DNA of 20,661 nt from a virus (Duplodnaviria; Heunggongvirae; Uroviricota; Caudoviricetes). Under the pieces are notes generated by a model. That model did not search any database. It saw only the letters and a program-made list of their open reading frames with translations, and was not told where the DNA came from. Location: IMG/VR virus record IMGVR_UViG_2872152978_000006, positions 1 to 20,661 of that record, one strand, 5' to 3'. Positions within the stretch are counted from its first letter, which is position 1. The number at the start of each line of letters is the position of its first letter. Shown here in pieces: positions 1 to 15,696 of this stretch. The position numbers were made by a program, and so were the translations under genes.

Positions 1-1203
1 GTGAAACTCAATGCCCGTCAAATAGACACAGCCAAGCCAAAAGAGAAGGCTTACAAGCTGGCCGATGGTGGCGGTTTGTATCTCTTGGTAAAACCTAATG
101 GAGGTAAATACTGGCGACTTAAATATCGTGTAGCTGGTAAAGAGAAGCTATTGGCACTAGGTGTGTATCCTGAGGTTACTCTAGCCGATGCTCGGGCAAA
201 ACGTGAAGATGCGAAAAGAGGTATCGCTGGTGGTATCGATCCGATGGAAGCGAAACGAGAGGAAAAGATTGCCCGGGAAACGCAGTTAAACAACACCTTC
301 AAAGATATTGCCCTTGAGTGGCACAGCAGCAAATTAAAAAAATGGTCTGCTGGTTATGCTTCAGACATCCTCGAAGCCTTCAACAAAGATGTGTTCCCTT
401 ACATTGGCAAAAAACCAATCGCCGAAATCAAACCACTTGAACTTCTGAATGTGCTGCGGCGCATCGAGGGGCGCGGTGCTACAGAAAAAGCCAAAAAAGT
501 GAGGCAGCGGTGCGGGGAAGTTTTCCGCTATGCAATAGTCACTGGTCGCGCAGAGTATAACCCTGCACCAGACCTTACTAGCGCGATGCAAGGCCATGAA
601 TCTAATCATTACCCTAAAGAATTACCTGATTTTTTCAAGGCATTGTCCAGTTACTCAGGAAGCGCATTGGTTGTTATGGCGGCTCGTCTACTGGTTATCA
701 CCGGCTTGCGGACTGGCGAACTACGTGGCGCATTATGGGATGAAATTGATTTCAACAAGGCTATCTGGGAGATACCCGCTTCACGTATGAAAATGCGGCG
801 GCCTCATATTGTGCCATTGTCTGATCAGGCTCTTTCGCTTATTGGGAAGATTAGAGAAATAACAGGCAATTACCCTCTTATGTTTCCCGGGCGCAATGAT
901 CCAAGGAAAACAATGAGTGAGGCCAGCATAAACCAAGTGTTTAAGCGCATTGGCTACGCTGGACGTGTAACTGGTCATGGGTTCCGGCACACTATGAGCA
1001 CGATTTTGCATGAGCAGGGCTATAACACCGCGTGGATAGAAACGCAGCTCGCTCACGTTGATAAGAACTCAATTCGTGGCACATACAACCATGCGCAATA
1101 TCTGGATGGAAGGCGGGAGATGCTTCAATGGTATGCCGACTATATGGATGCGCTGGAGAAGGAGGAGAACGTTGTTCATGGTTCGTTTGGGAAACGAGCT
1201 TAA
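1..1203 (+). CDS. P4/CP4-57-type tyrosine integrase (site-specific recombinase)
   Basis: 400-aa ORF with GTG start at window position 1; N-terminal motif KPKEKAYKLADGGGLYLLVKPNGGKYWRLKYR and C-terminal HGFRHT...HVDKN...RGTYNHAQY match the P4-type integrase family from memory. Start coincides with window edge, so a few N-terminal codons could lie upstream. Confidence 0.85.
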   Translation: MKLNARQIDTAKPKEKAYKLADGGGLYLLVKPNGGKYWRLKYRVAGKEKLLALGVYPEVTLADARAKREDAKRGIAGGIDPMEAKREEKIARETQLNNTFKDIALEWHSSKLKKWSAGYASDILEAFNKDVFPYIGKKPIAEIKPLELLNVLRRIEGRGATEKAKKVRQRCGEVFRYAIVTGRAEYNPAPDLTSAMQGHESNHYPKELPDFFKALSSYSGSALVVMAARLLVITGLRTGELRGALWDEIDFNKAIWEIPASRMKMRRPHIVPLSDQALSLIGKIREITGNYPLMFPGRNDPRKTMSEASINQVFKRIGYAGRVTGHGFRHTMSTILHEQGYNTAWIETQLAHVDKNSIRGTYNHAQYLDGRREMLQWYADYMDALEKEENVVHGSFGKRA

Positions 1204-1345
1204 CTGTATGAATAGACCGTGTTAAGCAATGGTAGTAGACTTATGTAGACGAACAAAGAATAGGCTATGTCTAGGCTGATCCCCGAAAACCCGTACACCC
1301 CTACGGGCTGGCATAGCCGTCAGAATTAGGGGCGCGGGGTGGCGT

Positions 1346-2227
1346 ATGGTGAGAGCCAAAAAACAAGATTTAGCATGGTTTGATATTAGTAATTATGAAT
1401 TTTTAAATGATTTAACCTTGCCGGACTTGATTCAAGAATTAGAGTGGCGCGATTTTTTATTGCGTCATGCAAAAGATGACACTGCTATATTCAAAGAAGA
1501 GTACGATATAAAATATGAAAGGATTTTTTCGGGCGATCCTAACCTAACCATTCTCAATGAAGAAGAGGAAGAGGTCGAAGAATTTATTCGCAAAGTAAAT
1601 GATGAAGCCCCATCATTAAGAAATGAGTACGATGATCTTCCCTCATTATCTTCAGCTATGGGGGTTAGTCCAGTAACATTTTCAGAGCTGGCCATGTACT
1701 CTTTCTCATCGATAGATCAAGGCTTTTTTAAAAGAGACGAAGAGGATTGCTACCTCAAGGCAAACGCTATGCTTGCGAGTGTTACTGGAAACCTAAGTAA
1801 TTGTTCCCCTAACATCATACTCGTTTCTATAGATTTAGATGACGCCACTGATGACGAAATTATTACCAGCCTGACTCACCTTCTACCTCTATGGCGAAAA
1901 GAGTTAAAAGTACCAGAGAGAGAGCATGTCGCTCAGAAAAGGATTGGATTAAAGACCCTTCAGAAGTTGATATCTAATAGAGTGATACCTATTGTTGATC
2001 TGCTGATTTGGGGTGAGAAGTCAGGTAAGGAAGTGAGCAATCCGATGATTTCTGCCTTGGTTTTTAGTGATGATCCGAAAGATACGCAGGCTATTAAGGA
2101 ATCAATAAAGCCTTTTGCACTTGAATCTATAAGCGAGAGATACACCCGCTTGCTTCAGCTTTATGTAAACAAAGACAGAGAAATGAGCTTGATAAAAATA
2201 TCTGATTTAATGAGTAGAGATTTATAG
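1346..2227 (+). CDS. hypothetical acidic protein, AT-rich cargo gene in the int-alpA slot
   Basis: 293-aa ORF, ATG start, visibly AT-rich relative to flanks, many D/E residues including an EEEEEVEE run; no family recognised. Confidence 0.55.
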   Translation: MVRAKKQDLAWFDISNYEFLNDLTLPDLIQELEWRDFLLRHAKDDTAIFKEEYDIKYERIFSGDPNLTILNEEEEEVEEFIRKVNDEAPSLRNEYDDLPSLSSAMGVSPVTFSELAMYSFSSIDQGFFKRDEEDCYLKANAMLASVTGNLSNCSPNIILVSIDLDDATDDEIITSLTHLLPLWRKELKVPEREHVAQKRIGLKTLQKLISNRVIPIVDLLIWGEKSGKEVSNPMISALVFSDDPKDTQAIKESIKPFALESISERYTRLLQLYVNKDREMSLIKISDLMSRDL

Positions 2228-2271
2228 CAAGCAAAATCCTACGTAAACGTTTTAAGTAAATTTCGCGATTT

Positions 2272-2306
2272 CCGCTTTGAATACGCTACTGTGTATTTCA
2301 AAGCGG
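2272..2306. promoter_or_regulatory. inverted repeat (10-bp arms CCGCTTTGAA / TTCAAAGCGG, 15-nt loop) upstream of alpA
   Basis: Perfect 10-bp arms read directly; lies between the orphan gene stop and alpA; no T-run directly after it, so function (terminator or operator) is uncertain. Confidence 0.3.
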
Positions 2307-2424
2307 ATAATCTTCTCAAAAAAATATTTTATTTTTATCCGCTATCACCCATTCACCGGTTTGTTTAATCTCCTTTCTGTCTACTGATGTCCATTAAAGA
2401 AGATGACAGAATATAGGAGTAAAC

Positions 2425-2622
2425 ATGTCTCAATCATTTATTCGTCTTTCTGAGGTTCAACGCCGTACTGGTTACAGCAAAGCGTGGATTTATCGGCTCA
2501 TCAAAGAACAGCGATTCCCTCAATCTGTAAAGATTGGAAGCCGATCAATTGCGTTTATTGAAAGTGAAATTGAAGAATGGATTAATCAGCGCATCGCTGA
2601 GTCGCGTGGCGAGGTAGCGTAA
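2425..2622 (+). CDS. alpA: AlpA-family phage transcriptional regulator / excisionase-like DNA-binding protein
   Basis: 65-aa ORF with AGGAG RBS; sequence FIRLSEVQRRTGYSKAWIYRLIKEQRFPQSVKIGSRSIAFIESEIEEWI fits the AlpA/Vis helix-turn-helix family. Confidence 0.85.
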   Translation: MSQSFIRLSEVQRRTGYSKAWIYRLIKEQRFPQSVKIGSRSIAFIESEIEEWINQRIAESRGEVA

Positions 2623-2964
2623 TGAATAAGAAAAACCGCCCATTACAGGCGGCTAATTCAGATATTCGCGTATCTGATGTTACGCCCCTTACAAAATCCC
2701 TTCAAGCACCAAAGCGCACACCGAAAAAGCATCGTGCCAGAGTCTATATGCTGCGTACTGGTATAGAGGGATGGACAGAAAATGACATTCTTCGCTACTG
2801 CCGTCTGTCTTCTGGTCGTAACTATGCAACAGAGTTAGAACGCCAGCTTGGAATCACTCTGGAACGTATCGACGAAAAGAATCCTGATGGTATCGGAACA
2901 CACCTTCGCTACCGTTTCTCCTGCCGTGGTGATGTTCTGAAAGTGATCACTCATGGATTTGCCC

Positions 2965-3870
2965 CTATATTTCCAGACATCTGTTATCACTTAACCCATT
3001 ACAAGCCCGCTGCCGCAGATATTCCCGTGGCGAGCGATAACCCAGCGCACTATGCGGATGCCATTCGTTATAATGCTCGAACGCCTCTGCAAGGTTCTTT
3101 GCTGCCGTTAACCCGTCTGGTTTGGGCATGATACTGATGTAGTCACGCTTTATCGTTTTCACGAAGCTCTCTGCTATTCCGTTACTCTCCGGACTCCGCA
3201 CCGCCGTGTTCTTCGGTTCAAGTCCCAACATCCGGGCGAACTGGCGTGTTTCATTAGCCCGGTAGCATGAACCATTATCCGTCAGCCACTCCACTGGAGA
3301 CGACGGAAGATCGTTGCCGAAGCGGCGTTCCACCGCTCCCAGCATGACGTCCTGTACTGTTTCACTGTTGAAGCCGCCGGTAGTCACCGCCCAGTGCAGT
3401 GCCTCACGATCACAGCAGTCCAGCGCGAACGTGACACGCAGTCTCTCTCCGTTATCACAGCAGAACTCGAACCCGTCAGAGCACCATCGCTGATTGCTTT
3501 CTTTCACGGCCACTCTGCCTGTATGTGCCCGTTTCGATGGTGGTACAGCAGGTTTTCGCTCAAGCAACAGCGCATTCTGGCGCATGATCCGGTAAACACG
3601 TTTGGCATTGATCGCAGGCATACCATCAAGTTCTGCCTGTCTGCGAAGCAGCGCCCATACCCGACGATAACCATACGTGGGCAGCTCTCCGATAACATGG
3701 TGTATACGGAGAAGCACATCCGTATCATCAGTGTGACGACTGCGGCGGCCATCCATCCAGTCATCGGTTCGTCTGAGAATGACGTGCAACTGCGCACGCG
3801 ACACCCGGAGACAACGGCTGACTAAGCTTACTCCCCATCCCCGGGCAATAAGGGCGCGTGCGCTATCCAC
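2965..3870 (-). CDS. insD: IS2 transposase OrfB (InsD)
   Basis: 301-aa ORF recognised as IS2 InsD (DDE integrase core, HSDRGSQY-type region). Confidence 0.9.
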
Positions 3871-4193
3871 TTTTTTGCCCGTCCATATTCAACGGCTTCT
3901 TTGAGGAGTTCATTTTCCATCGTTTTCTTGCCGAGCAGGCGCTGGAGTTCTTTAATCTGCTTCATGGCGGCAGCAAGTTCAGAGGCAGGAACAACCTGTT
4001 CTCCGGCGGCCACAGCAGTAAGACTTCCTTCCTGGTATTGCTTACGCCAGAGAAATAACTGGCTGGCTGCTACACCATGTTGCCGGGCAACGAGGGAGAC
4101 CGTCATCCCCGGTTCAAAGCTCTGCTGAACAATTGCGATCTTTTCCTGTGTGGTACGCCGTCTGCGTTTCTCCGGCCCTAAGACATCAATCAT
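3828..4193 (-). CDS. insC: IS2 OrfA (InsC), HTH protein
   Basis: Start placed at the internal Met of the 136-aa ORF ([25 protein letters not shown]...), giving the 121-aa InsC; overlaps insD start as expected for a frameshift-fusion IS3-family element. Confidence 0.85.
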
Positions 4194-4401
4194 CTGTACT
4201 CCAATGACTAGTCTAAAAACTAGTATTAAGACTATCACTTATTTAAGTGATACTGGTTGTCTGGAGATTCAGGGGGCCAGTCTAACTCATATTAACCATC
4301 TTGCGAACATAAATGATCACAACGGACTTTCTCAGCAGGAAATTGCCGACATTCTGAAACTCTACCCGGACGCGTTTAACGCCGCTTAACGGAGACTGAA
4401 A

Positions 4402-5235
4402 ATGAACATCGAAAAAAGCAGATTAATTTCTGAGGCCGCCCCTCATCTGAACGCCTCTCTGAGCACAATTAACGGTAATGAATTTGCCGCAATTGTCCCG
4501 GTTATTCCTGGTCATATCGGTGGGCGTGAAACCAATATTGTTAGCGCAAAAGCGTTACACAAAGCGTTGGGCGTGGGAAAAGACTTCTCTACATGGATCA
4601 CTGATCGCATCTCTGAATATGACTTCACCATTGGGCACGATTACTCAGTCCATAAAACAATTTCCCCAAATTTGGGGAAAAGCCCGAATGGCGCGGCTTA
4701 CAGCAAGATTAAGCAGTCTGGCAGACCCGGCAAAGACTATCTGTTAAGTGTCGGAATGGCGAAAGAACTGGCAATGATCGAACGCAATGATCAGGGTCAC
4801 GCTATCCGCCGTTATTTCATCCAGTGCGAGGAAGAATTACAGCGTAGCGTGCCTGAAATCGCCGCACGCTATCGTCGCCAGCTAAAAGCCCGTATCAGTG
4901 CCGCAAACAACTTTAAGCCAATGTGCGATGCGCTGAATATGGCCCGTGCCGAGATGGGGAAAACGACGCAGCAACACCACTACACAAACGAGAGCAATAT
5001 GATTTCTCGTATCGTTCTTGGTGGGCTAACTGCTAAGCAGTGGGCGCGGATAAATGGCTATTCTGGCGAACCTCGCGACCATATGAACGCAGAACAGCTT
5101 GAGCACCTCTCATATCTCGAAAGCACCAATATCACGTTAATTGATATGGGCATGGAATATGAGCAGCGCAAAGGAGAACTCACCCGCCTGTCGCAACGCT
5201 GGCTCGCCAAGCGTCTGGAGGCGCTCAATGTCTAA
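4402..5235 (+). CDS. phage antirepressor-like protein (AntA/Bro-N-type N-terminal domain)
   Basis: 277-aa ORF; region SAKALHKALGVGKDFSTWITDRISEYDFTIGHDY and GMAKELAMIERNDQGHAIRRYFIQCEEEL resemble AntA/antirepressor domains. Family call from memory. Confidence 0.55.
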   Translation: MNIEKSRLISEAAPHLNASLSTINGNEFAAIVPVIPGHIGGRETNIVSAKALHKALGVGKDFSTWITDRISEYDFTIGHDYSVHKTISPNLGKSPNGAAYSKIKQSGRPGKDYLLSVGMAKELAMIERNDQGHAIRRYFIQCEEELQRSVPEIAARYRRQLKARISAANNFKPMCDALNMARAEMGKTTQQHHYTNESNMISRIVLGGLTAKQWARINGYSGEPRDHMNAEQLEHLSYLESTNITLIDMGMEYEQRKGELTRLSQRWLAKRLEALNV

Positions 5236-5407
5236 GCCAACAGGAACACCACAACCACAAAAACGCTACAAAGATGCCCACGGAGCACTCGTTACTGTCG
5301 AAAGCGTGTCTCACAACCGAGTGACGTTTTATCGCGACGGGTATCAATCGCCATGCGTACAACCGCTGGCGCGTTTCATGAAGGAGTTCGCGGAGGTTAA
5401 CCAATGA
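5228..5407 (+). CDS. small hypothetical protein (59 aa)
   Basis: ATG at 5228 overlaps the upstream stop (AATGTCTAA) and its stop overlaps the next start (ATGA): translational coupling. Confidence 0.4.
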   Translation: MSKPTGTPQPQKRYKDAHGALVTVESVSHNRVTFYRDGYQSPCVQPLARFMKEFAEVNQ

Positions 5408-6065
5408 TACCCGTCCAGAAGAAGACATTTTCACTGGCTGGCATGTCGCCAAAATCCAGAAATATGACGGCAAAGTCAGGCATTAATACAGCAGATACAA
5501 GCAAAGTTTATCATTTGCTGGTGGTCGGAACGGATGCCTTAACCATACCAGAAATCTCGGGCGATGATATTAGCATTGAGAAGGTCAGCGGCTGCGCCAG
5601 AAAATTTCTGGTCGTAGATGATGTCTTCAGCTCGTGTAGTGACTCCACAAAAACATTCGTCCACGCGCGTGACGTTAACGAAATGAGCGCGATGTACTGT
5701 GCTTCTGGTTCTTCCAATAGTGAGTTTTCGGAGTCCATAAAAAAGAGCTTGCCGTTATGCGGCAACACGGTTTATGGTTATAAGGCACCTCATAAAACGG
5801 GTGCCGGGATTGGCGTCCTGGTAAATCGAATGGCGACATATGACGCGCCGAGCGTCTTTTTTTATGTCGTAGGTCTGACTCACCCATTTTTTGGGCGTTG
5901 GTGTATAATCCAGCGCCTTTGTCAATCAATGGTGGCTCAGGCAGGGGCTTCTTCGGAAGCGCCGGTATCCATTCGAGCCGGTTACGCCAACCCTGTCTGG
6001 GCTACCACCAGCGAAATTGGCGTTTCCGGTGGTAGCGTTACATGCTATCGAATGGAGGCTGCCAC
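5404..6065 (+). CDS. hypothetical protein; 3' extent uncertain (the open frame continues to 6471 but overlaps better-supported small genes in other frames)
   Basis: Start is coupled to the upstream gene by ATGA overlap; 355 stop-free codons are unlikely by chance, but the protein has no recognisable features. Confidence 0.25.
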
Positions 6066-6260
6066 ATGCTGGCTACTACCCCTACCCAAAAACCGCAATT
6101 TATCTGGATTATCGCCGCAGTTCGCCGCGATTGCCCGACAATTACCGCCAAAATTCATCATATTGCTGCCGAGTCTGAACGCGATGCTCGCCGTTATCTG
6201 GTGCGCGATCACATCTGCTTTTTTGCTGGTCGTATCCGCATGGAGGTGGCACATGATTAA
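6066..6260 (+). CDS. Icd-like small protein (host cell division inhibitor family of P4-like elements)
   Basis: 64-aa ORF with GGAGG RBS 7 nt upstream; motif QFIWIIAAVRR...AAESERDARRYL...FAGRI resembles Icd-like proteins. From memory. Confidence 0.45.
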   Translation: MLATTPTQKPQFIWIIAAVRRDCPTITAKIHHIAAESERDARRYLVRDHICFFAGRIRMEVAHD

Positions 6261-6471
6261 AACCTACGATGTGCATATGGATCCCCTCGAACGCACAAGC
6301 CAGATCATCACACTGACAGAAGTGATTAACGACATTCTGGTGAGCAACTCTCCCTCACGAGACGAAAGACTGAAGGCGTTACTCGCGATATTGGATCTCG
6401 CCGTTCGTGACGTTCATTTCCTGCTGGAAGGTGGCGAAATGCCAGGAAAAACGGGGGCAACCAATGAATAA
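6253..6471 (+). CDS. small hypothetical protein (72 aa)
   Basis: ATG with GGAGG RBS; start overlaps the Icd-like stop; stop overlaps the next start. Confidence 0.4.
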   Translation: MIKTYDVHMDPLERTSQIITLTEVINDILVSNSPSRDERLKALLAILDLAVRDVHFLLEGGEMPGKTGATNE

Positions 6472-6658
6472 CTCAATTAATACCCCTCGCCTTACGTCCG
6501 CACTTCAATTAATCGAGCAAGCAGCGGCTGTCCTGGTTGCTGTCAGTCTTTCGGCTGAAGAAATGGACGCTACTGATGTCGTGGATGCGATTAAAGCGTG
6601 CTCATCTTTGGTTAACGATGCCCGTGCCGAGCTGGTAATTCTTGGGGGTGAAAAATGA
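6464..6658 (+). CDS. small hypothetical protein (64 aa)
   Basis: ATG at 6464 inside the longer track ORF 6407-6658; overlapping start/stop with neighbours. Confidence 0.4.
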   Translation: MNNSINTPRLTSALQLIEQAAAVLVAVSLSAEEMDATDVVDAIKACSSLVNDARAELVILGGEK

Positions 6659-6918
6659 ATATCAACTTAATTTATCGTCATCCGTGTGAGCTGGAAATTG
6701 AATCATTGCTGGGGCGTGAAGAGCCATATCCAGACACATTCACTCCCGCAGATTGCGCGACTGAACGGCTTACCAGAGCGCGCACAGGTCTGGTTCATGT
6801 GATGAATGAGATTGTTCCCTCGGTGGGAGGGGAACAGGCGACAGTAATCAATAGCTGGCTACAAAAAGTTACCTCCCTGATAGATATCGGTTTAATCGAT
6901 GTGGAGAGTGCGAAATGA
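6655..6918 (+). CDS. small hypothetical protein (87 aa)
   Basis: ATGA overlap with upstream gene; part of the coupled small-gene chain. Confidence 0.45.
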   Translation: MNINLIYRHPCELEIESLLGREEPYPDTFTPADCATERLTRARTGLVHVMNEIVPSVGGEQATVINSWLQKVTSLIDIGLIDVESAK

Positions 6919-7070
6919 CCAACATCCAGCTCATTGAAGCGCAATGTCGCATCGAACAGGTTCAGACTGTTTTAGGGTTCTGGCTTGAAGGGGCCAGCCC
7001 CAGCAACAGAGACAAGTTAATGATTGGCGCGGTTATGTCACTGCTCAATGGCGTACCAGAAGCTATTTAG
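6915..7070 (+). CDS. small hypothetical protein (51 aa)
   Basis: ATGA overlap with upstream stop; below the ORF-track length cutoff; translated by eye as MTNIQLIEAQCRIEQVQTVLGFWLEGASPSNRDKLMIGAVMSLLNGVPEAI. Confidence 0.35.
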   Translation: MTNIQLIEAQCRIEQVQTVLGFWLEGASPSNRDKLMIGAVMSLLNGVPEAI

Positions 7071-7108
7071 GAAGCGGACGAATTGTTGGGCAAATATGAG
7101 TTACAGAA

Positions 7109-8427
<1,319 letters not shown>

Positions 8428-8947
8428 GAACCAGACGTTCGCTCCTACAGCACCAAATCAGGTCTGGGTGGCGGACCTGACGTATGTTGCCACACAGGAG
8501 GGATGGTTGTACCTCGCTGGCATCAAAGATGTTTATACGTGCGAAATTGTCGGCTACGCCATGGGAGAGCGCATGACAAAAGAGCTGACAGGTAAAGCCC
8601 TGTTTATGGCGCTCAGGAGCCAGCGCCCACCTGCCGGGCTAATCCACCACTCTGATCGAGGTTCACAGTACTGCGCATACGATTACCGGGTCATACAGGA
8701 GCAGTCTGGTCTGAAAACATCAATGTCGCGTAAAGGTAACTGTTACGACAACGCTCCGATGGAAAGCTTCTGGGGAACGCTGAAAAATGAGAGCCTGAGC
8801 CACTATCGTTTTAATAACCGGGATGAAGCCATCTCAGTAATACGGGAATACATTGAGATTTTCTACAATCGTCAGCGTCGTCACTCTCGTCTGGGGAATA
8901 TCTCCCCGGCAGCCTTCAGGGAAAAATATCATCAGATGGCTGCTTAA
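8428..8947 (+). pseudogene. C-terminal fragment of a different IS3-family transposase OrfB (IS600-like?)
   Basis: Open frame begins at the IS911 junction with no N-terminal portion; contains DDE-region motifs HSDRGSQY and SRKGNCYDNAPMESFWGTLKNE; precise IS identity not recognised. Confidence 0.75.
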
Positions 8948-8958
8948 AAAAAGAACAA

Positions 8959-9462
8959 ATGGTAGTGTCCGCTATTGCCAGTACACCTCACCGGGTGGCA
9001 TGGATAAACCCGGAAGAGAGTAAATCAAACCGCGCAATTGGCGTTGCGCTGAATGATACTGCATGTCGCGTATTGAAAAAACAAATCGGGAATCATCACC
9101 GTTGGGTATTTGTGTATAAGGAAAGCTGTACCAAACCAGACGGAACGAAAGCGCCAACAGTCAGGAAGATGCGGTATGACGCAAACACAGCCTGGAAAGC
9201 GGCGCTGAGACGAGCAGGTATTGATGATTTCAGATTTCACGACTTGAGACACACCTGGGCAAGTTGGCTGGTTCAAGCCGGAGTCCCGTTATCAGTGTTA
9301 CAGGAAATGGGAGGCTGGGAGTCTATCGAAATGGTTCGTCGATATGCTCACCTCGCACCTAATCACCTTACCGAACACGCACGGCAAATAGACTCGATTC
9401 TGAACCCATCGGTCCCAAATTTGTCCCAGTCAAGAAATAAGGAACGTACTAATGATGTGTAA
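8959..9462 (+). pseudogene. C-terminal fragment (about 155 aa) of a tyrosine integrase
   Basis: Contains the catalytic HxxR box ([11 protein letters not shown]) and Tyr region ([12 protein letters not shown]) but not the N-terminal domains or first catalytic Arg; begins right after the IS3-family remnant. Integrase homology starts near 8990. Confidence 0.7.
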
Positions 9463-9690
9463 CTTATTGATTTAAATGGGATAATAGGAACAATACACAT
9501 AGGCGATAAGCTTTGTTTTTGTTGCCTTTTTTATTGTTCATTTTTTATAGATACCCCCAAAAGTACCCCCATATCTTTTTCCGCCCCTGAAATTTGGTTG
9601 TTATTCATACACCATATCAGGCGGTAACGCTCTCCCTTTAACCCACTTATTGTATGATAGTGCTATCCCACAATAAGGAATCAGCCAGCC

Positions 9691-10050
9691 ATGAGAATGA
9701 CCAGTCGCAAAAAAGAGATACTTAGCTACTTTGAACCGGATAACCTCGAATGGGTGACTGGTGAGATTGGTGCGCCGCCGTTCGATGTGTCGGGTGTGGC
9801 CTACCTGCTTCATGGCATGGTGTCGTTCGATAAGCGTCACCAGCTCGAATCAACCCGGCGCACACTGGAAAGCATGGTTGCTGGTGGACTGCTTGAGCGG
9901 GTGACAGTGTATGAATCGCGCCAGATACGGCGCGGCGGTGATACTAACGCAACGGTCGTGCGCTACGGTTTACCCGGTCAGTGCGCTGTTATGCGCGATA
10001 CTGGCGGCGCTGACAACGCAATATCAGGTGAATACATGCGGGTCAGTTAA
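9691..10050 (+). CDS. hypothetical protein (119 aa)
   Basis: ATG with AAGGA RBS; no family recognised; 3' end overlaps the convergent gene by 8 bp. Confidence 0.45.
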   Translation: MRMTSRKKEILSYFEPDNLEWVTGEIGAPPFDVSGVAYLLHGMVSFDKRHQLESTRRTLESMVAGGLLERVTVYESRQIRRGGDTNATVVRYGLPGQCAVMRDTGGADNAISGEYMRVS

Positions 10051-10585
10051 TAGCCTGCAATCTGTCGTTGATGCGGCTCAGGTCGTAAACCCGGCGTTCA
10101 ATATCCAGCATCAGGAAATTGTGGATCTCGGCCTGCTCAGGATTATCAGACTCTCTGGCCTGTAATAGCAATTCATTGTAACCATGCAAGCCGCCTGAGT
10201 TTTCCGCCGGGGTGGTGCCTTTCCCACGCAGGCAGCTAATGGGCTGATTACTCGTATCGTGTGTTTTCTTCTCCAGCACAATGACGCAATCCCACCAGTC
10301 GCCAAAGTCATACGTGTAAACCAGCTTGTCACCCTCATTCTGGAGCGCCGCCCATAGTGGCGTGATTGCCGCGTTACCCATGCTTTCATCCTCACCCCAT
10401 ACGCGATACTCGCTACCTGGATCACCTTTACGCCCTTTCTCGAACATATACAGGTGTTCGTCATTCCAGCCAAAAGCTAACTGGATCACGGCATGAAGTT
10501 TACTAAAGGGGATTTGCTCTGGAACCAGCACACGCCGCCATATAGGTGGTTTGCTGTCTCGGATGGTTATCTTTAGCTGGTACAT
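10043..10585 (-). CDS. plasmid pRiA4b ORF3-like family protein (function unknown)
   Basis: 180-aa ORF; N-terminal YQLKITIRDSKPPIWRRVLVPEQIPFSKLHAVIQLAFGWNDEHLYMF matches the pRiA4b ORF-3 signature. Confidence 0.75.
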   Translation of the reverse strand: MYQLKITIRDSKPPIWRRVLVPEQIPFSKLHAVIQLAFGWNDEHLYMFEKGRKGDPGSEYRVWGEDESMGNAAITPLWAALQNEGDKLVYTYDFGDWWDCVIVLEKKTHDTSNQPISCLRGKGTTPAENSGGLHGYNELLLQARESDNPEQAEIHNFLMLDIERRVYDLSRINDRLQAIN

Positions 10586-10705
10586 GCAAATCCTGAATAA
10601 ATGCGAATCGGAAGGATAACGATACTGACGTACTCACAATTCTGTAAAGGTGAATAAAGGAAATTTGCTTAATACGCATAAGTTACATGTGGAATAATCC
10701 CATAT

Positions 10706-10891
10706 CTACCTGCGCGGCGCTGGCTTCTTCCACTGGTAGGCAGGTGCTCGCATCATTTCGCGGAACCTGTCGCGCCGGGCTATATCGGCATTAACTGATC
10801 GTTCTATCTCCCGTTGATCTGCCTGTGTAAGCTGGTGGCCTCCGTGCTCAAGTTTGGCGATGGTCAATAAGGCTATTTCGCGTGGTGTCAT
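10706..10891 (-). CDS. small hypothetical protein (61 aa)
   Basis: Good SD (AGAGGA) 8 nt upstream of the ATG on the minus strand; no family recognised. Confidence 0.4.
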   Translation of the reverse strand: MTPREIALLTIAKLEHGGHQLTQADQREIERSVNADIARRDRFREMMRAPAYQWKKPAPRR

Positions 10892-11162
10892 ACGTCATAT
10901 CCTCTGGAAGGATGAAACACGCCCGGATTAAATTTCATTTTTCGCGGGTATAAAAAAACGATGGGGCGGGCAGTCCCGGATAGTCAGGGCTGTAGAGATT
11001 TGACTACCCCCTCCCCACTGTATTCAGGTTACTGCTATTCCGTTAAGCGCTGCTTACGGGGATAGCTGCGTTGTGATTTTGACCATTCAGGTCGCCGCTA
11101 TTTCCTCACCGATTGGGTGCTACGCGCGCGCGTACTTGTCCCGAAATACCAGAAACCGCCAG

Positions 11163-11184
11163 CCAGAGGATGATTTCCCTCTGG
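11163..11184 (-). terminator. hairpin (CCAGAGG - 8 nt - CCTCTGG) just downstream of the minus-strand PerC gene
   Basis: 7-bp perfect stem 5 bp beyond the PerC stop; T-run is weak, so terminator function is tentative. Confidence 0.3.
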
Positions 11185-11188
11185 TGGT

Positions 11189-11470
11189 CTACCTTTGCCT
11201 CTTGCCGCCATTTAACCGGAAGGCGTTACCGTTCGGTTGCGCTATCCCCATGCGGTGTTGCGTTTCGGTAACAGCTTTATGCAGGTCGCCAAATTCCTCA
11301 ACCTTCACGGGCGGGCGCTTCACGTTCTCCAGACACGTTTCACGGCGGCGCTTTATCCATTCCCGATCATCGTCCTCGGAGCATAACAGCATGACTTCCA
11401 TCCATCGTGCGGCAGCTCTCCGGTATAGCCCTTTTGACTCCAGCTCTTCAGCTTTCCTGTCCCTTATCAT
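11189..11470 (-). CDS. PerC-family transcriptional regulator
   Basis: 93-aa ORF with ELESKGLYRRAAARWMEVM, characteristic of PerC/Pch-like prophage regulators; GAGG RBS. Confidence 0.7.
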   Translation of the reverse strand: MIRDRKAEELESKGLYRRAAARWMEVMLLCSEDDDREWIKRRRETCLENVKRPPVKVEEFGDLHKAVTETQHRMGIAQPNGNAFRLNGGKRQR

Positions 11471-11505
11471 TTCTGCCTCTCAGATTATATAGATAAGCAA
11501 AAAGG

Positions 11506-11620
11506 TGTTGGTTCAGTTGGTTTAATTTGTAAAGATCGTTGTTTTTATTATGTTTTTTTCTAAAATATTGAACCAACATCAACTCATTTTGAACCAACAC
11601 AGCCCAGCTCTGAACCAACA
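11506..11620. repeat. iteron array: TGAACCAACA direct repeats at 11569, 11590, 11611 (exact 21-bp phasing) plus one inverted copy at 11506-11515
   Basis: Read directly from sequence; sits in the divergent intergenic region between PerC (minus) and the RHH gene (plus). Confidence 0.7.
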
Positions 11621-11685
11621 ACACAGCGATAGCTTTGTGATTGGTCCGTTATTTTCTGGCTGATATTTGAGCGTATAACAGTGTT

Positions 11686-11704
11686 ATACAGTGGTATACT
11701 GTAT
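11686..11704. promoter_or_regulatory. 7-bp inverted repeat ATACAGT - 5 bp - ACTGTAT (candidate operator) about 30 bp upstream of the RHH gene start
   Basis: Arms at 11686-11692 and 11698-11704 are exact reverse complements. Confidence 0.35.
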
Positions 11705-11733
11705 GGATATTACTCACTGATATGGTCTTTGCA

Positions 11734-12177
11734 ATGAGCAAATCTAATCTGATCGCGTTCCGCATCCCATCTTAATTGCAGGATGAGTTTAATCGGTCTG
11801 TTCTCGCTTCTGGAGGGGATAAAACCTCCTGGCTTGTTGATGCGATTCGCATGAAGCTGGGACAGCCGGAAAAGTCTATTGATTCACGAATGCTTGGGCT
11901 GGTGGAGCGCATGGAAAAAGCCGCTGCGTCGCTTATTGCCGGAAAGCCGAACATCCCACCAAAGCCATATAACGAAACGGCAGTTATAAAGATCATTGCC
12001 GATACCATCCAACAGGGATTTGATAATGGGCGTGTGATAGCTGAACGGATCAATGAAGCAGGCTATCAAACAAAAGCTGGTAAAGCGTGGGATAAAGATA
12101 TTTACAGCGCGTGGAAGCGTCAGGGAAGCAATGCTGAAAATTTAAAAGCGGTGATTGATTGTAAGGTCAGCGTATAA
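11734..12177 (+). pseudogene. ribbon-helix-helix (Arc/MetJ/CopG-like) DNA-binding protein with an in-frame TAA after codon 13
   Basis: ATG 11734 encodes MSKSNLIAFRIPS, then TAA at 11773-11775, then the same frame continues LQDEFNRSVLASGGDKTSWLVDAIRMKLG..., the helix-turn-helix part of an RHH fold. The ORF track places a TTG restart at 11776. Confidence 0.5.
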
Positions 12178-12289
12178 ACATGAGTGCCCATTGGAAAGTA
12201 AGCGTACAGCCTGAACCGTCTGGTCAGAATCTGACGAATTAGACAAAGTGGTGTCCACCAAATAAGTAGTGGGAACCAAAGTGTCAGAT

Positions 12290-12670
12290 ATGCAGAAAAA
12301 TGTGAATCCCGGCAGGCGAAAAGGCTGCCCTAATTATCCTCCCGAATTTAAACAGCAGCTCGTTGCTGCCTCCTGTGAACCCGGGATATCCATCTCAAAA
12401 CTTGCTCTTGAAAATGGCATTAACGCCAATCTGTTGTTCAAATGGCGACAACAATGGCGCGAGGGAAAGCTGCTATTACCTTCTTCAGAGAGCCTCCAGC
12501 TACTTCCTGTGACTCTCGATGCAGCTGCCGAACAGCCAGAATCGCTCGCAGAGGATCCGGAAACCCTCAGTATCAGCTGTGAGGTAACGTTCCGGCACGG
12601 GACGCTCCGCTTCAATGGCAATGTCAGCGAAAAGCTCCTGACTCTGCTGATACAGGAACTGAAGCGATGA
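12290..12670 (+). CDS. IS66-family TnpA (orf1)
   Basis: Family-typical small HTH protein; ATG at 12290 preferred, alternative GTG at 12269 from the ORF track. Confidence 0.75.
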   Translation: MQKNVNPGRRKGCPNYPPEFKQQLVAASCEPGISISKLALENGINANLLFKWRQQWREGKLLLPSSESLQLLPVTLDAAAEQPESLAEDPETLSISCEVTFRHGTLRFNGNVSEKLLTLLIQELKR

Positions 12671-13014
12671 TCCCGTTACCTTCCGGGACCAAAATTTGGC
12701 TGGTTGCCGGTATCACCGATATGAGAAATGGCTTCAACGGCCTGGCGGCAAAGGTGCAGACGACGCTGAAAGACGATCCGATGTCAGGTCACGTTTTTAT
12801 CTTCCGTGGGCGTAATGGCAGTCAGGTAAAGCTCCTCTGGTCTACCGGCGATGGACTGTGTCTGCTGACCAAACGGCTGGAGCGCGGCCGCTTCGCCTGG
12901 CCGTCAGCCCGGGATGGCAAAGTGTTCCTCACACCGGCACAGCTGGCGATGCTCCTTGAAGGTATCGACTGGCGGCAGCCTAAAAGACTGCTTACGTCCC
13001 TGACTATGTTGTAA
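12667..13014 (+). CDS. IS66-family TnpB (orf2)
   Basis: 115-aa ORF coupled to tnpA by ATGA overlap; motif LVAGITDMRNGFNGLAAKV. Confidence 0.85.
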   Translation: MIPLPSGTKIWLVAGITDMRNGFNGLAAKVQTTLKDDPMSGHVFIFRGRNGSQVKLLWSTGDGLCLLTKRLERGRFAWPSARDGKVFLTPAQLAMLLEGIDWRQPKRLLTSLTML

Positions 13015-13062
13015 GCCTCTTTATCCTGGTCGACGCTGAATGAGCCTGGTAATATACCCGGT

Positions 13063-14601
13063 ATGAGCAGCTCACTTCCTGACGATATCAATGCACTGAA
13101 ACGTCTCCTTGCCGAACAGGAGGCGCTGAACCGTGCCCTGCTGGAAAAGCTGAACGAGCGTGAACGCGAAATAGACCATCTGCAGGCACAGCTGGATAAG
13201 CTGCGCCGGATGAACTTCGGCAGCCGCTCCGAAAAAGTCTCCCGTCGTATCGCACAGATGGAAGCTGACCTGAAGGCACTTCAGAAAGAAAGTGATACCC
13301 TTACCGGTCGGGTTGACGACCCGGCCGTGCAGCGCCCGCTGCGTCAAACCCGCACCCGCAAACCGTTCCCCGAATCACTCCCCCGCGATGAAAAACGGCT
13401 GCTGCCGGCAGCGTCATGCTGCCCGGAATGTGGAGGCTCACTGAGCTATCCGGGTGAGGATGCCGCCGAACAGCTGGAGTTGATGCGCAGCGTCTTCCGG
13501 GTTATCCGGACTGTACGTGAAAAGCATGCCTGTACTCAGTGCGATGCCATCGTGCAGGCCCCCGCGCCTTCACGGCCCATCGAGCGGGGTATCGCAGGAC
13601 CGGGGCTGCTGGCCCGCGTGCTGATCTCAAAGTATGCAGAGCACACCCCGCTGTACCGCCAGTCTGAAATGTACGGCCGCCAGGGCGTGGAGCTGAGTCG
13701 TTCACTGCTGTCGGGCTGGGTGGATGCATGCTGCCGGCTACTGTCACCGCTGGAAGAAGCGCTTCAGGACTATGTGCTGACTGACGGTAAGCTCCATGCT
13801 GATGACACGCCTGTCCCGGTGCTGTTGCCAGGCAATAAGAAAACGAAGACCGGGCGGTTATGGACCTACGTTCGTGACGACCGTAACGCCGGGTCAACGC
13901 TGGCGCCGGCGGTGTGGTTCGCTTACAGCCCGGACAGAAAAGGCATCCATCCGCAGACCCATCTTGCGGGGTTCAGTGGTGTACTGCAGGCGGATGCATA
14001 CGCCGGGTTCAACGAGCTGTACCGGGATGGCCGGATAACGGAAGCCGCCTGTTGGGCTCACGCCCGCCGTAAAATCCACGATGTGCACGTTCGCACCCCG
14101 TCAGCCCTGACGGAGGAAGCGCTGAAACGGATCGGCGAACTGTACGCCATCGAGGCAGAGATAAGGGGAATGACGGCGGAGCAGCGCCTTGCCGAACGTC
14201 AGTTGAAAACGAAACCGCTGCTGAAATCCCTGGAAAGCTGGCTGCGTGAAAAGATGAAAACCCTGTCGCGACACTCAGAACTGGCGAAAGCGTTCGCATA
14301 CGCCCTGAACCAGTGGCCGGCGCTGACGTACTATGCAGATGATGGCTGGGCTGAGGCGGACAATAACATCGCTGAAAATGCGTTGCGGATGGTCAGTCTG
14401 GGCCGCAAAAACTACCTGTTCTTCGGTTCGGATCATGGAGGAGAGCGGGGAGCGCTGCTGTACAGCCTGATCGGGACGTGCAAACTGAACGGAGTGGAGC
14501 CAGAAAGCTACCTCCGCTATGTCCTTGACGTCATAGCCGACTGGCCGATAAACCGGGTCGGCGAACTGCTCCCCTGGCGCGTAGCACTGCCGACTGAATA
14601 A
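13063..14601 (+). CDS. IS66-family transposase TnpC (orf3)
   Basis: 512-aa ORF with N-terminal leucine-zipper region, CxxC zinc-finger-like motifs (CCPECGG, CTQCD) and a DDE-type core. Confidence 0.9.
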
Positions 14602-14623
14602 CACATCCCCGTCAATACGGTTC

Positions 14624-15205
14624 TTGCTGCACGCTTACAAAAAAGCGGGTTTTCACCCGTCAGAATCTGGCGGGGATCCGTCAGTAAAATCAAAACATGA
14701 TCCGTCAGATAAAAAACCTTCTCGTCCGGACGCTTCGCAACCGGACACGCAGACGGCTGAACAGGATTTTTTAACTCGCCATCCTGATGCGGTTGTATTC
14801 AGCCCTAAAAAGCGCCAGTGGGGGACGCAGGATGATTTGACCTGCGCACAGTGGCTCTGGAAAAAAATCATCGCCCTGTACGAGCAGGCTGCCGAATGTG
14901 ACGGCGAGGTGGTTCGTCCCAAAGAACCGAACTGGACAGCCTGGGCAAACGAAATTCGCCTGATGTGTGTACAGGATGGCCGTACACACAAACAAATCTG
15001 CGAGATGTACAGCCGCGTCAGCCGCGATCCGTTCTGGTGCCGTAACGTGCTCAGCCCGTCGAAGTTGCGGGAAAAATGGGATGAGCTTTCCCTGCGCTTA
15101 TCGCCGTCCGTCAGCACGCACACAGAAAAACGTGAAGACCCGTACTTCAAAGCCAGTTACGACAACGTGGACTACAGCCAGATCCCGGCAGGATTCAGGG
15201 GGTGA
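14624..15205 (+). CDS. DnaT-like phage replication protein (primosomal DnaT C-terminal domain); 5' end abuts or is interrupted by the IS66 element
   Basis: C-terminus ...SYDNVDYSQIPAGFRG parallels the E. coli DnaT C-terminal end (...SQIPPGFRG, from memory); the ORF-track start is a TTG inside the IS terminal repeat, so the native start is probably lost or upstream of the insertion. Confidence 0.6.
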   Translation: MLHAYKKAGFHPSESGGDPSVKSKHDPSDKKPSRPDASQPDTQTAEQDFLTRHPDAVVFSPKKRQWGTQDDLTCAQWLWKKIIALYEQAAECDGEVVRPKEPNWTAWANEIRLMCVQDGRTHKQICEMYSRVSRDPFWCRNVLSPSKLREKWDELSLRLSPSVSTHTEKREDPYFKASYDNVDYSQIPAGFRG

Positions 15206-15207
15206 GC

Positions 15208-15696
15208 ATGAGTCTTTTGAATGACGTTCAGAAATTCATTGAAGCCCATCCGGGGTGTACTTCCGGAGACATTGCGGATGCTTTTGCAGGTTACTCACGG
15301 CAGCGCGTTCTGCAGTCTGCAAGCAAGTTACGTCAGAGTGGGCGTGTGGCTCACCGTTGTGAAGGAGATACACGCAGACATTTCCCGCGCCTGACTGAGA
15401 GAGCGCAGGAACCGGGACCACAATCAGTTCGAGAAACCAGACCTGTGCGCAATTTCTATGTCGGCACTAACGATCCCCGGGTGATTTTGTGCCTGACCCG
15501 CCAGGCTGAAGAACTGGAGTCCAGGGGCTTATACCGTCGTGCTGCAACGGTGTGGATGGCGGCATTCCGTGAAAGCCACTCCCAGCCAGAACGAAACAAT
15601 TTTCTGGCGCGTCGTGAGCGGTGCTTACGGAAAAGCAGCAAGCGCGCTGTATCGGGTGATGAGTGGTATCTGTCAGGGAATTACGTGGGGGCTTAA
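15208..15696 (+). CDS. PerC-family regulator with N-terminal winged-helix-like extension
   Basis: Contains AEELESRGLYRRAATVWMAAF, paralogous to the motif in 11189-11470; ATG 15208 preferred (GGGGG RBS) over the overlapping GTG at 15202. Confidence 0.65.
   Translation: MSLLNDVQKFIEAHPGCTSGDIADAFAGYSRQRVLQSASKLRQSGRVAHRCEGDTRRHFPRLTERAQEPGPQSVRETRPVRNFYVGTNDPRVILCLTRQAEELESRGLYRRAATVWMAAFRESHSQPERNNFLARRERCLRKSSKRAVSGDEWYLSGNYVGA

Follow-up and report, generated by a model that had tools for sequence, protein, structure and literature searches.

The locus studied here raises the question of what a strictly phased set of short repeats is doing in the divergent intergenic region between a perC-family gene and the gene of a conserved 147-aa protein. 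The DNA that was analysed, hereafter the window, is a stretch of 20,661 nucleotides from a Caudoviricetes record (IMGVR_UViG_2872152978_000006), and a preliminary description of it had offered two answers, i.e. a replication origin or a cooperative operator array for the adjacent protein, which was taken to be of the RHH type. As both answers depend on what exactly is present, the elements of the array are given here one by one:

11486-11505, no strand assigned: conserved flank TATATAGATAAGCAAAAAGG, adjoining the inverted iteron set, defined from alignments of relatives
11506-11524, minus strand: left iteron set, opposite in orientation to the right set, with one exact copy (TGTTGGTTCA, the inverse of TGAACCAACA, at 11506-11515) and one degenerate copy (GTTGGTTTA, at 11516-11524)
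11525-11568, no strand assigned: AT-rich core and presumed melting site, 44 bp, 84% A+T, containing the conserved ATTTGTAAAGA..TTGTTTT
11569-11620, plus strand: right iteron set, three exact copies of TGAACCAACA (11569-11578, 11590-11599 and 11611-11620) at a strict 21-bp spacing, with variable spacers between them

The repeats proper were found as they had been described, namely three exact 10-mers in 21-bp steps with one inverted copy upstream. The intergenic region measures about 263 bp, from the perC start at 11470 on the minus strand to the ATG at 11734, in agreement with the roughly 260 bp given earlier. Two elements had been missed. The degenerate second inverted copy stands in 9-bp tandem with the first and carries a single mismatch, a C-to-T change, and the AT-rich core separates the two opposed iteron sets, with a local G+C content down to 20% in a window of 50.5% G+C. 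The array at 11506-11620 exists, is conserved and could hardly have arisen by chance. When the 263-bp intergenic region was shuffled 20,000 times, an equally spaced triple of any 10-mer never appeared, and TGAACCAACA is the sole 10-mer that forms such an equally spaced cluster in the window. A further degenerate iteron at 11641-11649 was considered and dropped, as 6 of 9 matching positions are too weak to count.

The array belongs to an island that has been rearranged, and the parts of the window that matter for its interpretation are as follows:

1-7179: left part of a phage-inducible chromosomal island (PICI) with a P4-type integrase, DUF6387, AntA and Ash, interrupted by an IS3-family element
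1-1203: int, within this left part
7109-9462: IS elements and an integrase fragment, the latter at 8959-9462
9459-12198: right end of an island of this kind, in inverted orientation with respect to the left part, with a hypothetical gene, a pRiA4b-ORF3 gene, perC, the array and the 147-aa gene
11189-11470, minus strand: perC-family gene (Pfam PF06069, E = 1.2e-30), divergent neighbour of the array and accessory island cargo
11734-12177, plus strand: pseudogene of a conserved 147-aa protein (WP_001344215.1 family), with an in-frame TAA at 11773-11775
12198-14620 (ends approximate), plus strand: IS66-family element, with multi-copy matches starting at 12195-12198 and HTH_Tnp_1, TnpB_IS66 and DDE_Tnp_IS66 ORFs at 12269-14601
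14624-15205: C-terminal fragment of an O-like replication protein (phrog_391, E = 9e-84)
beyond the IS66-family element: lambdoid prophage remnant with this O-like fragment, a PerC-domain activator, Dam, LexA-like, RusA, KilA-N, DUF968, Q and IS1

The closest intact relative is the SEC470 island (L097; loci of our collection are designated by L and a number), which is 97-99% identical and whose middle 9.4 kb, including the primase-helicase gene, are missing from the window. Profile searches of the ORFs detected no primase or helicase gene in the window, and the proximal origin unit that intact relatives carry is not present. What is left of the PICI organisation are rearranged fragments, i.e. 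int, AntA, Ash, the integrase fragment and the inverted perC end, with no pri-rep gene. The two island parts lie in opposite relative orientation, IS3-family elements and the integrase fragment mark the junctions, and an IS-mediated inversion and deletion of the island is likely. A partition site was discarded as an explanation of the repeats, since no ParA/ParB-type gene occurs among the ORFs examined.

The same context removes the initiator that had been proposed. The gene formerly called 'DnaT-like' (14624-15205) encodes the C-terminal portion of an O-like protein of lambdoid type and belongs to another prophage remnant beyond the IS66-family element. It matches positions 119-298 of the 298 positions of phrog_391, the C-terminal two-thirds, and the N-terminal part is missing from the ORF. 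The origin of phage lambda is situated within its O gene. Likewise, the gene order of an RHH gene followed by a DnaT-like gene dissolves, because an IS66-family element from about 12198 onwards separates the two and joins unrelated remnants, that of the island and that of the lambdoid phage with its O-like fragment. The window holds two perC-type genes of different origin, the second of which lies in the lambdoid remnant and encodes a PerC-domain protein of 164 aa (15202-15696; PF06069 over residues 100-153; phrog_1324, 'transcriptional activator'). The downstream 'RHH gene' cannot be counted as an intact gene. Its codon at 11773-11775 is TAA in the window versus GAA in the relatives L001, L046, L096 and L050, and the 147-aa gene is therefore a pseudogene here; L046 shows the same IS66-joined arrangement with the codon intact.

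When the array is followed through its relatives, a defined unit emerges that occurs in many enterobacterial islands: a 9-bp tandem inverted set, an AT-rich core of about 43 bp, and direct copies at 21-bp spacing. The genes adjoining this unit vary from island to island, and in L003, L004 and L005 the array has other neighbours. In most relatives the left set consists of three exact 9-bp tandem copies (GTTGGTTCA three times in L046, L096, L003 and others), and most full-length matches in E. coli are 359 bp long versus 351 bp for the query taken from the window, which fits the loss of one 9-bp copy in the window. Of 211 extracted units, 132 have a gap of 43 bp between the opposed sets. An alignment of these units shows at least 90% conservation of the iterons, the left tandem set and part of the AT-rich core as against 30-60% for the spacers of the right set; many loci were collected with the three-copy pattern, which makes the conservation of those three copies partly circular, whereas the flanking features lie outside the pattern. 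The core motif ATTTGTAAAGA..TTGTTTT, which the search pattern did not include, shows about 90% conservation; in aligned loci of E. coli, Erwinia, Pantoea and Klebsiella, TATATA..AAGCAAAAA is again found next to the 9-bp tandem set, and the flank TATATAGATAAGCAAAAAGG accompanies the unit even in loci that have no perC. Loci found by BLAST rather than by the pattern (L003-L006) keep the same right-set copies. Within E. coli, the region that contains the window's array is matched in 563 genomes, with a median of 2 and up to 6 matching places per genome. Missing or unphased repeats in homologues would have spoken against the original observation; instead, conservation of the repeats and of their phasing extends across genera, which favours it.

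The three-copy pattern also matched long same-strand tandem arrays with 21-bp periodicity in Nostoc, Fischerella, Thaumarchaeota and other distant taxa (L054, L057, L064, L066-L068, L073-L077, L081, L084, L087, L088, L090 and others). These cyanobacterial, archaeal and other matches were set aside, as both an inverted set and a Rep gene are lacking; they are presumably unrelated tandem repeats.

Which protein might act on the unit is indicated by its position. From the pattern scan of viral and genome collections, combined with the BLAST hits, we obtained 74 clusters of TGAACCAAC in mixed orientation. Of these, 41 are found no more than 100 bp from the 3' end of a gene for a TOPRIM+DUF927 primase-helicase (SaPI Rep-like), and the Rep homologues at these clusters share 55-100% identity over the C-terminal ~570 residues. 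Six more clusters are distal copies with a DUF927 Rep gene 0.3-10 kb away on the same locus; for the remaining 27 there is no such gene in the stretch examined, several of them ending at contig ends. The DUF927 part matches PDB entry 8tch, a 'Pathogenicity island protein' (E = 1.9e-11), and the SCCmec-type helicase 5dgk.

The SEC470 island bears on the specificity of this association. Its Rep has an N-terminal primase domain that is 85% identical over residues 1-350, with a C-terminus of the DUF5906 type instead, and directly 3' of its gene lie different iterons, CCTRTACC (L097 10575-10677), in the same architecture. A second CCTRTACC cluster follows 1.1 kb further on (L097 11685-11780); these iterons read CCTGTACC / CCTATACC. 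Since the same primase domain is here combined with another C-terminus and other iterons, the iteron type follows, as far as these sequences tell, the helicase/origin-binding part of Rep, as is expected of a cognate pair of initiator and origin. The pairing of iterons and Rep is proposed from co-location and by analogy with SaPI Rep. As the SEC470 Rep uses CCTRTACC, the TGAACCAAC unit that stands beside perC in that island, and by descent in the window, would not be cognate to that Rep.

Intact E. coli islands carry the unit twice: one unit lies 3' of Rep and a mirror-image unit 2-10 kb away, beside perC and the 147-aa gene. L096, for example, has units at 2749-2869 and 9107-9226, 6.3 kb apart and in mirror orientation; the proximal one is 26 bp from the Rep stop (Rep ends at 9252) and the distal one sits between perC and the 147-aa gene. 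The distance is 1.9 kb in L099 and 7.5-10 kb in L031, L044 and L049; SEC470, with its two clusters of CCTRTACC iterons, provides another case of a split origin, one that differs in specificity. A query composed of Rep and the proximal unit was found for the most part in about 364 of 5,426 complete E. coli genomes, with two matching places in nearly all genomes among the matches listed. In the Klebsiella capsid-forming islands (L100, L006), two mirror-image units lie side by side next to rep. The genes between the units or next to the distal one differ, comprising P22-like ejection/injection proteins, HTH proteins and hypotheticals (L096 2984-9009; L004 6648-12168; L003 6190-8300), and the interval that separates the units is possibly a hotspot for cargo.

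L099 (NZ_CP148430.1), a 12,152-bp circular record with a DUF927 Rep and TGAACCAAC iterons, is evidently an excised E. coli PICI. L100 (NZ_CP069874.1) is a 15,995-bp circular Klebsiella record with int, AlpA, DUF927 Rep, capsid, portal, terminase and TGAACCAAC iterons. Both had been deposited as small circular 'plasmids'; each represents an entire satellite island, L099 a PICI of E. coli and L100 a capsid-forming island of Klebsiella. With the Rep and the origins that they carry, they suggest that the sequenced cultures contained episomal forms. L006, the 106-kb record of Klebsiella phage P12620-1 (PQ569648.1), ends in a rep-ori-capsid module (~94.9-106.5 kb) like that of the 16-kb Klebsiella island. 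This end module may be a co-assembled or co-packaged satellite rather than a part of the phage.

Among known systems the PICI/SaPI origins (SaPIs; EcCICFT073) come closest. According to the parts of PMC9371898 that were available, SaPI Reps bind iterons immediately downstream of rep, half of them on each side of an AT-rich region and in opposite directions; the iterons are recognised by the C-terminal winged-helix domain of a self-loading helicase, and at least two iterons per side are conserved. The window resembles this design in that opposed iteron sets flank an AT-rich region, the left set being one exact copy plus one single-mismatch copy. In intact relatives the likeness extends to a unit immediately 3' of pri-rep and to an initiator related to self-loading helicases, as indicated by the 8tch match. 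It also includes int, an AlpA-type regulator, pri-rep, perC cargo and the yicC-dinD site: L096, L097 and L099 show PICI organisation (int, AlpA-type regulator, pri-rep, specific att site), and L096 lies at yicC-dinD. In the accessible text of PMC6092414, some E. coli PICIs carry perC and yicC-dinD is a listed PICI attachment site. The differences are that in the window the unit does not follow the 3' end of a rep gene but lies as a distal unit between perC and the 147-aa pseudogene, and that the iterons here have 9-10 bp versus the 5-6 bp stated for SaPIs in the portion of the literature at hand.

A second comparison concerns phage P4. In its record (NC_001609) crr (4291-4590) is located directly 3' of alpha, and ori (9086-9809) lies 4.7 kb away in the control region of the divergent ORF88 and sid; both carry TGTTCACC repeats in both orientations. 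Two separated regions with the same iterons, one of them 3' of the primase-helicase gene, likewise occur in L096, L099, L031, L044 and L049, and the window keeps one of the two. The N-terminal Zn-ribbon/Toprim primase domain is homologous, with 34% identity over about 350 aa, and is the only domain shared. In contrast, the iteron is TGTTCACC in P4 and TGAACCAAC(A) here, the helicase/origin-binding part of alpha is of the D5_N/DUF5906/Pox_D5 kind whereas Rep has DUF927, and sid, psu and delta are absent. The resemblance to theta plasmids (pSC101, R6K, RK2) and to the lambda ori is more general, with phased direct repeats beside an AT-rich unwinding element and a replicon-specific initiator. There, small Rep or O initiators recruit the host DnaB, whereas the presumed initiator here is itself a helicase; moreover, their iterons of about 17-22 bp usually lie on one side of the AT-rich element, whereas opposed sets flank it here. 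A literature search for the iteron sequence returned irrelevant matches only.

Taken as a whole, the array at 11506-11620 is in our judgement quite probably one PICI-type origin unit, of the distal kind, which has been stranded without Rep in a decayed, IS-rearranged island and is most likely a relic, the palindrome region being a separate matter. The cognate initiator would be the C-terminal part of the DUF927 (SaPI Rep/MCM-like) primase-helicase. By analogy with SaPI Rep, this protein would attach to the iterons of both sets, open the AT-rich core and serve as the self-loaded replicative helicase; it is on this analogy that binding, melting and origin firing are ascribed to the unit. Autonomous replication driven by a cognate Rep has indirect support from the co-location, from the iteron type that goes with the Rep C-terminus, and from the circular records L099 and L100. 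The window unit would be the distal, ori-like one and would act only if the cognate Rep were supplied in trans, as the island appears to have been rearranged by IS elements, with loss of the Rep gene and the proximal unit and with a weakened left iteron set. In general, the distal unit may be an origin, a crr-like enhancer or a redundant copy. The origin that had been suggested was thus right in kind, given the PICI/SaPI design and the 41 related loci 3' of a DUF927 gene, but the wrong initiator had been assigned to it and the palindrome had wrongly been merged with it. Two observations speak against an origin. In SEC470 the unit persists beside a non-cognate DUF5906 Rep, and a unit kept without its presumed initiator could have another role. 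Furthermore, the unit adjoins the 147-aa gene in 12 loci across genera (E. coli, Erwinia, Pantoea), a recurrent synteny that is compatible with a regulatory link.

A more far-reaching version of the origin reading is that enterobacterial PICIs with a DUF927 Rep use a P4-like origin in two parts, both of which are needed in cis, as ori and crr reportedly are in P4, and that orphan distal units could still capture the Rep of related islands. We hold this to be possible but doubtful. The two units, adjacent in Klebsiella, would have been pushed 2-10 kb apart in E. coli, the interval having received variable cargo such as ejection-protein genes and the 147-aa gene, with perC situated just outside it on the side of the distal unit, and this interval would be a hotspot for the insertion of cargo. 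In the literature to the extent that it was available, PICI origins are described only as a single site 3' of rep, and the P4-like split into two distant units in E. coli PICIs may be the one aspect that exceeds published descriptions.

Instead of a relic, the array might be a live regulatory or competition site, which titrates or 'handcuffs' the Rep of islands of the same replicon type that enter or share the cell (incompatibility), or which is replicated in trans upon induction of a related island and thereby amplifies perC and its neighbours. Iteron-mediated handcuffing is established for iteron plasmids. Several matching places per E. coli genome are common, and SEC470-type islands, the Rep of which uses other iterons, retain the unit at 97-99% identity; such high identity, however, may just reflect recent common ancestry. 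In the window, the loss of one copy from the left set and the mutation of another suggest decay; the array there adjoins a pseudogene, and IS elements have fragmented the island. We regard a live site of this sort as improbable.

The operator reading, in turn, stands and falls with the 147-aa gene, and its upstream region holds two further features:

11673-11704, plus strand: putative promoter/operator of the 147-aa gene, with the 10-bp repeats GTATAACAGT / GTTATACAGT / GGTATACTGT
11692-11700: candidate extended -10 element TGGTATACT, proposed from cross-species conservation only

The palindrome at 11686-11704 (ATACAGT-GGTAT-ACTGTAT) is present with its 7-bp arms as reported, and it is overlapped by a stronger palindrome with 8-bp arms, GTATAACA-g-TGTTATAC, at 11673-11689. 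Both fall within three 10-bp direct repeats at 11673-11702, and these repeats travel with the 147-aa gene. In Erwinia, Pantoea and L016, too, the 147-aa homologue has equivalent repeats and a TGn-TAnAAT-like element upstream, the extended -10-like element being TGGTATAAT in L016 and TGATAAAAT and TGCTAAAGT in Erwinia and Pantoea. L099 has two of the 10-bp repeats rather than three and keeps TGTTATACT. The repeats are of the GTATAAC/GTTATAC type with the E. coli version of the gene versus GTCTTAC in Erwinia and Pantoea, while the iterons are unchanged, and L016 has the gene and its upstream 10-bp repeats with no iterons upstream. Most simply, 11673-11704 would be the gene's own promoter and autoregulatory operator, separate from the iterons. 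The palindrome, which had been counted as part of the iteron device, goes with the 147-aa gene instead. A consensus scan of 11350-11850 gave no two-hexamer promoter and no terminator, and a scan of 10900-12300 gave no Rfam match at E up to 1. A LexA box was considered for the palindrome and rejected by eye, as CTGT-N8-ACAG is absent.

The protein itself belongs to a family that is widespread in Enterobacterales and has no Pfam match. No RHH family was matched in Pfam, PHROGs, NCBIfam or a PDB sequence search (phmmer), and Foldseek comparison of the AlphaFold2 model with the PDB gave no match with E below 1. Over residues 1-80 the pLDDT of the model stays below 55; an unstructured N-terminus is followed by helices at 17-29 and 36-46, and at this low confidence the model is at most compatible with an RHH fold, which would have two helices at these places; one source calls a 147-aa homologue an 'Arc-like DNA binding domain protein'. 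For residues ~80-147, the C-terminal half, the model shows a small helical domain at a pLDDT of about 90, for which there was no Pfam family and no Foldseek match. It contains a near-invariant motif, DNGRxIAERLNEAGYQTKxGKxWDKDIYSAWKRQ, which presumably resembles the helix-turn-helix part of the 'recombinase' domains of serine recombinases.

Could the 10-mers then be a cooperative operator array through which this putative RHH protein controls the divergent promoters of perC and its own gene? The divergent intergenic position and the 21-bp phasing would suit cooperative binding, the array lies within 200 bp of the start of the 147-aa gene in the 12 loci from several genera, and the N-terminus with its strand-helix-helix pattern, along with the Arc-like name of the homologue, points in the same direction. 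But the 147-aa gene adjoins none of the 41 Rep-adjacent arrays, other genes neighbour the array in L003, L004 and L005, and L016 has the gene with its 10-bp repeats but no iterons. Because iterons and 147-aa gene occur independently of each other in relatives, the iterons are unlikely to be operators of the neighbouring gene. In addition, the gene has repeats of its own, which differ between E. coli and Erwinia/Pantoea where the iterons are constant, and the RHH assignment itself gained no support from the profile and PDB searches, the N-terminal part of the model being of low confidence. An operator function of the array, as offered in the preliminary description, is accordingly hardly probable.

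Arm-type sites of the island's tyrosine integrase, or sites of a recombination directionality factor, are very improbable: arm sites are short direct and inverted repeats, the L005 cluster lies ~400 bp from the integrase gene and the attP arm repeats of P4 are close to crr, but the L096 clusters lie more than 2 kb from the island end and mid-island next to Rep, 8 kb from int, the clusters of the circular L099 and L100 abut the Rep gene and not int, and the iteron type tracks the Rep C-terminus and not the integrase; integrase arm sites were rejected on cluster position.

Returning to the stranded origin unit, this reading explains a repeat array that stands beside genes for perC-family virulence regulators in several hundred E. 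coli genomes as origin DNA of phage satellites and not as a means of transcriptional control. It guards against annotating the array as an operator or tying it to the neighbouring fragment of a lambdoid replication gene. The window itself would represent a well-understood kind of element in the remnant of a decayed island, not a new control system. The reading also provides a pairing that can be tested, iteron TGAACCAAC with the DUF927-type Rep, for which CCTRTACC with the DUF5906 type is usable as a specificity control. Finally, if the split ori/crr-like layout is functional, the replication strategies of PICIs and P4 would be closer to each other than current descriptions state.
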